A stretch of 63,837 bases of DNA, the filler included, from Dugesia japonica (lineage: Eukaryota), in NCBI GenBank assembly GCA_001938525.1. It is 5 parts of 5 records of this genome, joined end to end, with 100 filler letters (N's around TTAATTAATTAA, not from the genome) between each part and the next. Parts side by side here need not be neighbours in the genome. Positions count along the whole stretch, not along the records: positions 37,863 to 55,447 come from MQRL01619908.1; 4 more parts are not named here. One strand, 5' to 3'. A program made the position numbers and the translations under genes. Positions 45,245 to 47,521 of this stretch are shown in pieces; position 1 is the stretch's first letter; every line of letters begins with the position of its first letter. The notes below the pieces were generated by a model. That model was not told the origin of the DNA and did not search any database. It was given only the letters and a program-made list of their open reading frames with translations.

Positions 45245-47521
45245 TTATAGTACTGATGCTGGTGCTGGTGTGTTTTCGCTTCCTCCGAATTTTAGAAAGT
45301 TTTTCAATCGTTGCATTTTGCTGATTTTTTCGTATTGTTGTCTTTTAAATTCTGCATCGTATTCCATGGCAGCCTTGTAACTGGGTACATGGGGGGTTCC
45401 ATTGCTTTCTCCTCTATCTTCATCGCTGCTGCTGCTACTTTCATCTTTATTTTTAAATCTTTGTTTAAACTGATTGAAATATGATATTTTCTTTTTTGCA
45501 TTGCTCATTTCTTCGCACAATAGTCGGAGTTCGATTATAACTTTATTGTCTGACCTTTTTATTTGTCCGAGCTTCCTAATGAACTGCTTTACTCTGTCGA
45601 TGTCTTTGGAGTGGCTATTAAGCACCATAGTTTTGGCTAAAAATGGGAATATTCCTGTTACCATTTTCCAATTCAACCTCTTCTCTCTTTTGTATATGTC
45701 AAAGCAGGCCAACAGTTGGGTGATCACTACTCGTGTTACCGAAATTATCAACATAACTCCTAACAATCTTGACATTGCTTATCCAAATATGATGAATCGT
45801 CCCCACATTTTCCGCATGACGTTTTCGGTGGCTTTTTGAAAGTGCTCTGCTGATAACAATGCATCGTAATTTACACGCCCATCTATGTTGGTTCCACTGG
45901 TTAATTGCACTATGTTGGATAGGATCTGCATCCTTCGGACTGGAAACAACATATATTCTCTGGCTTTTTTTATGTCTTCCCTGCTGTAAATTCCTCCTTT
46001 ATTTACATCAATTGGAGTAAATTGCATACCTTCATTTAATCGTAACATGGAGAATTACCGTGGTTCAATTCCCACTGCCATCCGTTGTGGGAATCTTATC
46101 CATGAACCATCTGTCATTATGTATTGTGGTCCAAATACGTTAGAACAATTTATGACATTTGGCCTATAACCCAATGGTGATATTATTCGAGTGATTGGTT
46201 GCACGTATCGTTTCTCGTTGTTGTGGATAATTTCTATTTCGTTGTAGCAGTCTTTTGGATTAGACGAGAACTCTGCATCAATGGCCTTGCATTTATATAG
46301 GTACATCACTTATCCTACTACTCGACCGAATTGTCCTTTTTCCAAAGGAAGTAGTGGAGTGACACTATCAGGGTTTGTAACTGCCATTGCTAATTTTGTC
46401 TTTAATATTTCTTTGTTTAACGTGCAGTCATTTTGAATGAAATCGTGGTACATTCATCCGATGGTATCTTGTATCCGATGGAACAAATTGTCCATTTTGT
46501 TATTGGCGTAGAGATGCAATTTAATATCCTGTGACATCACAGCGGCTTGCGCCGTTATTATTCGATGTTCAGACACGAATATCCCTTTATCGTTCGTTTT
46601 ATATACTATTTGCCCACACTTGGAAATAGAATTTCCTTTAATTAAACGCAGGGTTTCGTCCTGTTCCGAGGACATTAACACTGTGGGAGTTGTGTGCCAT
46701 TGTTGATCGTATGATCTTGGGCCTGATCTTATTGTCTCCTTGAGATTATCTATTCTATCTTTCAGATTACCCTCTTTTGGTGCTTGATCGATAGGCGTTA
46801 TGGCTCGTTGCCCTTGATATTCGTTGAACATTGCTTCTTTTAAGTGTGCTAATTTACAGTCCTGATGCTCTACTTTATATGCCAGTGTTGATGTACCTGT
46901 ATTACATGATGCATCTGCTGCTTTGCAATATGACCTTCCTTTCATAGTCAAATCTTGGGCGTCAAAGAATGCCTCGTATTCCTTGAGTTCTACTGTATAG
47001 GTTTCGATTGCTACCGCATACTCCCAGACCTTTCCTCGGATAGTGTAGGTACCATATTCACAATGACCCTTATGTGAGGATATGCTTCCTGCGGCTTCTA
47101 TGGGTTGGTCGATTACATGTCCTTTCTTGGCAATAACTTGAGTCCCATGTTTGATGGTAATTTTCCCCGTCGCGAATCCTTCATCGCATTGTTGCCCTGT
47201 TAGATGTACAGGATGTCTCACGGTTCCTGGATCAGTTATTGAGGTATAGCTGTGATAATCACAATGAAATATAAACGTTTTTACTGTTACTGTACACTCG
47301 CGTACTTGAGCTTTATAATAATTAGACTCTTGATATAGATGGTAAATGGAATTATTACGGAGTGAGATTTTCTCCGGGTTTGCATCCGGACATTCTTCTG
47401 TATCTACCAGGGAGAATATCTCTTTCCCAACTTGCATCCCATCGCAATCGTATGCTAATATGGCTTAACTTCTACCCATCATTAGGAATAACAAGAGTAT
47501 TGTAGTGGTTAACGCTTGCCA
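45245..47521 (-). pseudogene. Envelope: chuvirus (Jingchuvirales)-type fusion glycoprotein with internal signal peptide and C-terminal TM
   Basis: Signal WQALTTTILLLFLMMGRS*A then ILAYDCDG..FSLVDTEEC; LYANNKM; YHDFIQNDC; VVG*VMYLYKC..CYNEI..YVQPITRII..G..INC; GGIYS; MWGRFIIFG*AMSRLLGVMLII; all in one frame. Confidence 0.85.

Follow-up and report, generated by a model that had tools for sequence, protein, structure and literature searches.

The window, a 63,837-nt stretch of DNA from Dugesia japonica, carries the internal region of a large retroelement on the minus strand of one 17.6-kb contig (37863–55447), which is bounded by assembly gaps (N) on both sides. The GC content was about 0.39 in this contig, compared to about 0.27 outside it. 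Read on the minus strand, the element encodes a retrotrans_gag domain, three CCHC zinc knuckles, a stretch that is blank in Pfam, one or two ubiquitin-like (Ubl) domains, a low-complexity linker, a Bcl-2-like domain, a first hydrophobic helix and the ectodomain of a glycoprotein (G). These are followed by a transmembrane (TM) helix, a tail, two retropepsins (PR), a dUTPase-like segment, reverse transcriptase (RT), RNase H (RH), integrase (IN) and a separate ORF with an IAP-type RING. The initial annotation had placed a glycoprotein between gag and pol of a Gypsy-type element, and the Pfam domain order confirmed this. Its claim that the glycoprotein is in frame was borne out for G and both proteases, which share one frame from about 50570 to about 43580, but not for the copy as a whole, which is broken by stops and has six frame changes, five of them between retrotrans_gag and the shared frame and the sixth where RT starts. 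No LTR pair was found in 30000–63837, and the contig ends at the gaps.

By eye, positions 1–37800 of the window were mostly transposon debris, including other Gypsy pol and gag fragments, a DNA-transposase-like fragment (14427–14996) and Polinton-like polymerase and ATPase fragments. On the plus strand at 8652–10314, ORF fragments with hydrophobic helices were followed by the motif CYDYEDVH, and this is possibly the remnant of a surface-protein gene from another element.

Gag, cargo and pol domains of the element

The Gag capsid domain is broken and lies at 54078–54359 (PF03732, E = 5e-4, under the Pfam cut-off), followed by the three zinc knuckles at 53603–53785, where three CX2CX4HX4C matches were found (PF00098, E = 2.9e-8). 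Between the knuckles and the Ubl, about 3.5–3.9 kb of coding sequence (49700–53600, minus strand) matched no Pfam family, with frame changes and an N gap inside. The first ubiquitin/SUMO-like domain is a weak match at 49448–49669 to PF22900 (UCH_UBL1, E = 0.017, under the cut-off) and not to PF11976, and the relative P0017 had a ubiquitin match (E = 0.031) at the same place. A possible second ubiquitin-like domain with an LGG end (48749–49054) was called by eye; it had no Pfam match and matched the relative P0018 (E = 1.5e-7).

Directly before the signal of the glycoprotein, at 47630–48031, lies a Bcl-2-like domain that was absent from the initial annotation. The Pfam match was under the cut-off in the window (PF00452, E = 0.0091) and reached E = 0.00096 in the relative P0003, and a GGW motif just before the signal was kept in four relatives. 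When a weak model of the region (pLDDT 50) was compared with 48,161 chains, the 10 best were all Bcl-2-fold proteins (Z 5.7–6.3). Foldseek with the same model found nothing at E ≤ 0.001, and for the same region phmmer against the PDB returned chance matches only and the ESM Atlas nothing at ≥0.9. The three agreeing lines, namely Pfam, the GGW motif and the fold ranking, weakly support a Bcl-2 identity. Pfam gave no match to MATH, ankyrin, SMC or BIR in the element, where the decay of the copy and the gaps that cut it may hide such domains.

The pol region starts with two tandem retropepsins (44120–45004), of which the first (PR1) lies at 44720–45004 (PF09668, E = 5.3e-10; DTGA at 44950–44939) and the second, with an approximate low end, at 44120–44365 (PF00077 and PF13975, in two stretches; DTGA at 44323–44312). 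The DTGA motifs are 209 codons apart. At least two proteases were also found in 6 of the 12 relatives with a PR after G, and P0008 has four. The tandem retropepsins could come together in one active site of single-chain, pepsin-like type. The interval between PR and RT holds a dUTPase-like segment (43820–43975; PF00692, E = 0.003–0.015, under the cut-off). One frame change away from PR, RT and RNase H of Ty3/Gypsy type occupy 42414–43511 (PF00078, E = 7.7e-32; PF17919, E = 1.5e-38; PF17917, E = 5.8e-36), followed by the integrase at 40989–42044 (PF17921, E = 6.5e-18; PF00665, E = 1.8e-12). The RT_RNaseH, RT_RNaseH_2 and Integrase_H2C2 domains in Pfam mark this pol as Ty3/Gypsy type. A BEL/Pao-type pol was considered and rejected, since Pfam gave no Pao-type match and Gypsy-type domains instead.

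The accessory ORF 3′ of the integrase (40053–40776) has an IAP-type RING at 40081–40212 (PF13920, E = 7.1e-15; cIAP1/XIAP RING, E = 3.5e-10). Pfam did not detect a BIR in this ORF; a degenerate BIR-like stretch at about 40500–40620 was visible by eye only. Two further ORFs of 202 and 171 aa on the minus strand (38928–40005) are coiled-coil-like and Pro-rich, with PAM2 at E = 0.066 and no clear Pfam match.

The glycoprotein is predicted to be a class III fusogen

The fusogen-coding region as a whole covers 45683–47521 on the minus strand. All the motifs on which the initial annotation had based its call were located there: the hydrophobic stretch (47512–47456), AYDC (47455–47444), YANNKM (46510–46493), PITRI (46198–46184) and WGRFIIFG (45805–45782), and the Cys pattern was conserved. 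The ectodomain (45782–47461) is broken by stops. It has 14 Cys, and at 12 of these positions the Cys was kept by 90% or more of the 118 aligned proteins. No furin-like RxK/RR site was found in the ectodomain.

When 45245–47521 was translated with stops read as X, it matched PF24664 (Monjiviricetes_fusion) with E = 1.5e-89 and 301 bits against a cut-off of 27. An AlphaFold model of G built from the 118 aligned proteins had a mean pLDDT of 89.3. In Foldseek, chuvirus glycoproteins came out on top, with the best match overall to G of Tacheng tick virus 4 (E = 3.7e-37) and the best match among solved structures to HSV-1 gB (E = 1.4e-14). The Foldseek probability was 1.00 for both chuvirus G (TM up to 0.69) and HSV gB (TM about 0.38). 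A search with G alone by phmmer against the PDB gave chance matches only. With the profile of alignment A1, herpesvirus gB accounted for 33 of the 35 PDB matches, weakly (best E = 0.0096), and the central helix aligned to that of gB. The proposed chuvirus-like fusogen was in this way recovered both by profile and by comparison with chuvirus G and class III folds, and by these criteria the glycoprotein is classed as a class III fusogen. Chuvirus and jingchuvirus G and herpesvirus gB have the same fold and domain order as G in the window, but share only 13–20% identity with it, and they stand alone, with the signal at their N-terminus.

Predicted topology of the glycoprotein

A simple hydropathy scan with a threshold of 1.6 found only two hydrophobic windows in the 2401-codon frame, and these flank the ectodomain. 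The first is an internal signal/anchor helix (47456–47521, hydropathy 1.71) with one stop inside, and signal peptidase is predicted to cut two residues before AYDC. The second (45710–45766, hydropathy 2.14) is a helix in the AF2 model and a predicted stop-transfer TM helix. The predicted cytosolic tail that follows (45245–45709) has an acidic/Ser patch in its sequence and ends at a stop in this copy. In relatives P0004, P0006 and P0008 the signal helix fell below the threshold of 1.6.

A small residue was found at −1 in 14 of 15 proteins and at −3 in all 15, in a register that was picked after the sequences had been seen and in relatives that are not independent of each other. Small residues at −3 and −1 are the signal-peptidase rule, and the conserved pattern fits this rule. 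In 14 relatives the putative cut site is 143–1364 residues into the ORF. The initial annotation had proposed an internal signal, a type I topology and a Pol carried on the cytosolic tail; the two flanking helices and the signal-peptidase-type site predict the same, with Pol cytosolic. The analogy to flaviviruses drawn for this topology appears reasonable.

In three relatives the integrase is followed, in the same ORF, by another signal-like helix with a predicted ectodomain and more hydrophobic helices (P0005, 2486–2740; P0007, 2257–2557; P0012, from 2780). Judged from its sequence, this region is possibly a second surface protein, one that the window's copy lacks.

Decay of the window's copy and the reading frame in relatives

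The frame from G to PR1 had 7 stops in 844 codons. The two alternative frames had 55 and 68, and 1000 shuffles never gave fewer than 33. Five of the seven fall in the signal, ectodomain and TM part, including one in the signal (47465–47467), and the others lie at 45245–45247 after the tail and once more before PR1. The whole frame of 2401 codons had 21 stops, and RT–IN had six. Per 100 codons this corresponded to 0.59 stops in the cargo, 0.82 in G, 0.86 in the tail and linker, 0.64 in the protease and 0.71 in RT–IN. The window's copy is dead and uniformly decayed. In the 233-codon linker from the TM helix to PR1, about 1.6 stops were expected from decay and two were seen, so decay is sufficient to account for them.

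Relatives were scanned for the same arrangement in 21 proteins, which were chosen from 150 matches with long ones favoured. In 12 of the 21, G was followed by PR in one stop-free protein, and relatives read on from the tail into PR without a stop. Five of the 21 had G, PR, RT and RH in one protein, four of these with IN as well, and four of the 21 had a Gag marker ahead of G in the same stop-free protein. A single ORF with gag, env and pol is consequently shown by the relatives and not by the window's copy. An indexed protein search gave no match among longer proteins and one near the length of the query; an unindexed search found the long relatives, which points to a sensitivity limit of the indexed search. 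One of the relatives, P0007 (HBK71150.1), is a G–PR–RT–IN polyprotein filed as a Flavobacteriaceae MAG protein, and is likely to be host DNA in the bin.

In one DNA run, 39,281 contig records covered all 30 bins including G, about half of them at 90–95% identity, where the depth in contig records does not equal copy number. Since G was covered like all the other bins, it belongs to a multi-copy family. Among the 40 contig differences that were listed, three hit stop codons of the window's copy, and all covering contigs differed there; none of the 40 lay in G or the G–PR linker. Three RNA runs gave 3, 111 and 8 reads, which were mostly partial.

Phylogeny of the glycoprotein

A FastTree phylogeny of G was built from 61 of the 130 rows that passed the length filter. 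Sixteen rows grouped in one branch (SH-like support 99); outside it were one row on a long branch and 44 G proteins, most of which stand alone. The branch of sixteen held the window, 13 proteins with G embedded in a longer ORF and two fragments, P0002 and P0014, which were labelled as polyprotein-type without domain proof. It separates the G lineage of the window from stand-alone chuvirus-like G. An env capture of the kind proposed initially may be its origin; the tree points to neither a donor nor a direction. P0033, in which G follows DUF5641, which we take to be a BEL/Pao marker, sits in the other main branch, and in this sequence tree the window's lineage is placed apart from the type with a BEL/Pao-like context. 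A comparison of the G and RT trees gave a divided answer: the two had one supported split in common, their deepest, but conflicted on another, and the six elements compared are too few for claims of co-evolution.

Comparison with known elements

The layout itself, which the initial annotation had implied to be new, is already published both for planarian Burro (PMC6431247) and for GAG-ENV-POL errantiviruses (PMC13524379). For planarian Burro/GYPSM1, Arkhipova and Yushenova (2019) reported an env that lies in the same frame as BCL2 before it and PR after it, and called this "the first case" (PMC6431247). In that account, Burro1–4 and GYPSM1 stem from Jurka 2007 and Grohme 2018, have retrotrans_gag with three knuckles, Ubi2/SUMO-like, BCL-2, env, PR and a dUTPase-like segment before RT, carry MATH_TRAF_C, SMC, BIR and ankyrin cargo, and reach a total of 25–30 kb with long LTRs. 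Decayed Burro-type copies with stops and frameshifts are reported there for Dugesia japonica as well. In planarians, BURRO1 goes up after smedwi-2 RNAi (PMC8532177).

The window's element shares with the published Burro elements the retrotrans_gag domain, the three CCHC knuckles, possibly a Ubl/SUMO-like domain (a weak match in the window), the BCL2-like domain, env in frame from BCL2 to PR, the dUTPase-like segment between PR and RT, cargo of ubiquitin and apoptosis type and a coding span of about 4,500 codons or more. It differs in having no MATH, ankyrin, SMC or BIR match, which decay may hide, in LTRs that lie outside its contig, and in its two proteases, which section 7 of PMC6431247 does not mention. 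Burro env was found there to match mononegavirus fusion glycoproteins, and HHpred likened it to gypsy Env and to proteins of paramyxovirus type; the fold of the window's env, in contrast, is modelled as class III (gB/chuvirus). The window's element is a member of the published Burro-like kind, new or uncatalogued, with the likeness drawn from domain content and order.

Chary and Hayashi described GAG-ENV-POL elements with a gB-type env in Platyhelminthes, Nematoda and Bryozoa, and listed six from Schmidtea (Smed_errantivirus_1–6), with an ectodomain flanked by a signal and a TM or by two TMs (PMC13524379). They considered these env genes to be anciently associated with pol, with ORF rearrangement (PMC13524379). 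Elements of this type and the window's element have in common a Ty3/gypsy PR–RT–RH–IN, a gB-type env between gag and pol and the flanked ectodomain. By eye, the Cys pattern of domains I–II in the window was that of the six Smed rows, and a run of 13 residues was identical to Smed_errantivirus_5, but these domains as a whole were not identical to any of the six. The window's copy is not intact, unlike the elements in that survey, for which intact ORFs with LTRs were the inclusion criterion. The mosquito BEL/Pao elements named Anakin carry a chuvirus-like G (Dezordi 2020, as cited in PMC13524379); their glycoprotein family is the same (PF24664), but the retroelement superfamily is different (BEL/Pao compared to Gypsy).

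Discussion

We consider it probable that the element is a decayed, multi-copy, Burro-like giant Gypsy with a class III G in one frame between the Bcl-2-like domain and the protease, and that its intact relatives thread G into the ER membrane within one Gag-cargo-Env-Pol polyprotein. This explanation is built on the domain order, the fold, the two flanking hydrophobic helices, the uniform decay, and the relatives with stop-free G–PR–RT(–IN) and gag–G proteins.

In the processing scheme that we propose for intact relatives, helix 1 would act as an internal signal that opens translocation, and signal peptidase would cut two residues before AYDC. The Gag–Ubl–Bcl-2-like part would remain cytosolic, anchored by helix 1 in the manner of a Bcl-2 tail anchor. 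gB-type fusogens trimerise, and the ectodomain would fold in the lumen and trimerise in the same manner. Helix 2 would halt transfer, leaving PR–PR–dUTPase–RT–RH–IN on the cytosolic tail until the retropepsins release it. Gag, Env and Pol would be collected at a single membrane, a possible budding site for enveloped particles.

In its strongest form the scheme would make Burro-like elements infectious enveloped viruses with a flavivirus-like giant polyprotein, in which one helix would be both the tail anchor of a Bcl-2-like death-blocker and the cleaved signal of a fusogen, and Pol would enter particles on the tail of G and be freed by the tandem, possibly single-chain, protease pair. We put this forward as a tentative and rather doubtful proposal. 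Literature searches did not find the flavivirus-like processing scheme, the tandem protease or infectivity, and both processing and the double protease may already be treated in Grohme 2018 and Sacco 2022. A word search of the main text of PMC13524379 found no occurrence of "polyprotein", "in-frame", "fused" or "single ORF", and processing is not discussed there.

A possibility of slightly greater weight is that the retained fusogen serves intracellular assembly, or the fusion of host cells or membranes, and not extracellular infection. Retroviruses make Gag in excess, and synthesis of Gag, Env and Pol at 1:1:1 from one polyprotein would be unlike this. The class III ectodomain has nevertheless been maintained in full, with its conserved Cys, across deep lineages, and the extra surface protein predicted after IN in three relatives also speaks for an extracellular role. 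On the side of an intracellular role, the available sections of the published descriptions (PMC6431247, PMC13524379 and PMC8532177) report neither particles nor infectivity.

It is also conceivable, but unlikely, that Env comes also or mainly from a spliced or internally started message, with the hydrophobic stretch as an ordinary N-terminal signal and splicing setting the Gag:Env:Pol ratios. There are established precedents in Drosophila gypsy, with its spliced env, and in foamy viruses, with their spliced pol, and a Met 10 codons ahead of the start given in the initial annotation would produce a normal-looking signal of about 30 aa. By eye, however, 7 of 14 relatives lacked a Met within 25 residues upstream of the hydrophobic core, the frame is open across both junctions in relatives, and a spliced env message would still continue into Pol. 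No RNA joints were seen, at an RNA depth near zero. Least probable by far is a G with an ORF of its own, or one inserted independently as a chuvirus-like EVE, that by chance lies in frame within a Gypsy. In favour of this, stops at 47465–47467 and 45245–45247 lie almost exactly at the ends of G, and most of the 150 matches are stand-alone chuvirus-like G proteins with a length of about 650 aa. Against it, the first of these stops falls within the signal, the linker stops are as many as decay predicts, G is covered in DNA contigs like the rest of the family, polyprotein-type G forms its own well-supported branch, the G and RT trees of six elements have the same deepest split, and the nearest relatives are G–PR fusions, the stop-free ones of which largely refute such an origin.

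With the layout published in 2019 and later surveyed across phyla, its presence in the window adds little by itself. The modest additions are the structure-based placement of a Burro-type env in class III (chuvirus/gB), the conserved internal site of signal-peptidase type and the tandem protease. If both the processing of the polyprotein and its infectivity were true, Burro-like elements would represent a second route to an enveloped reverse-transcribing virus, one that does without a separate env message.
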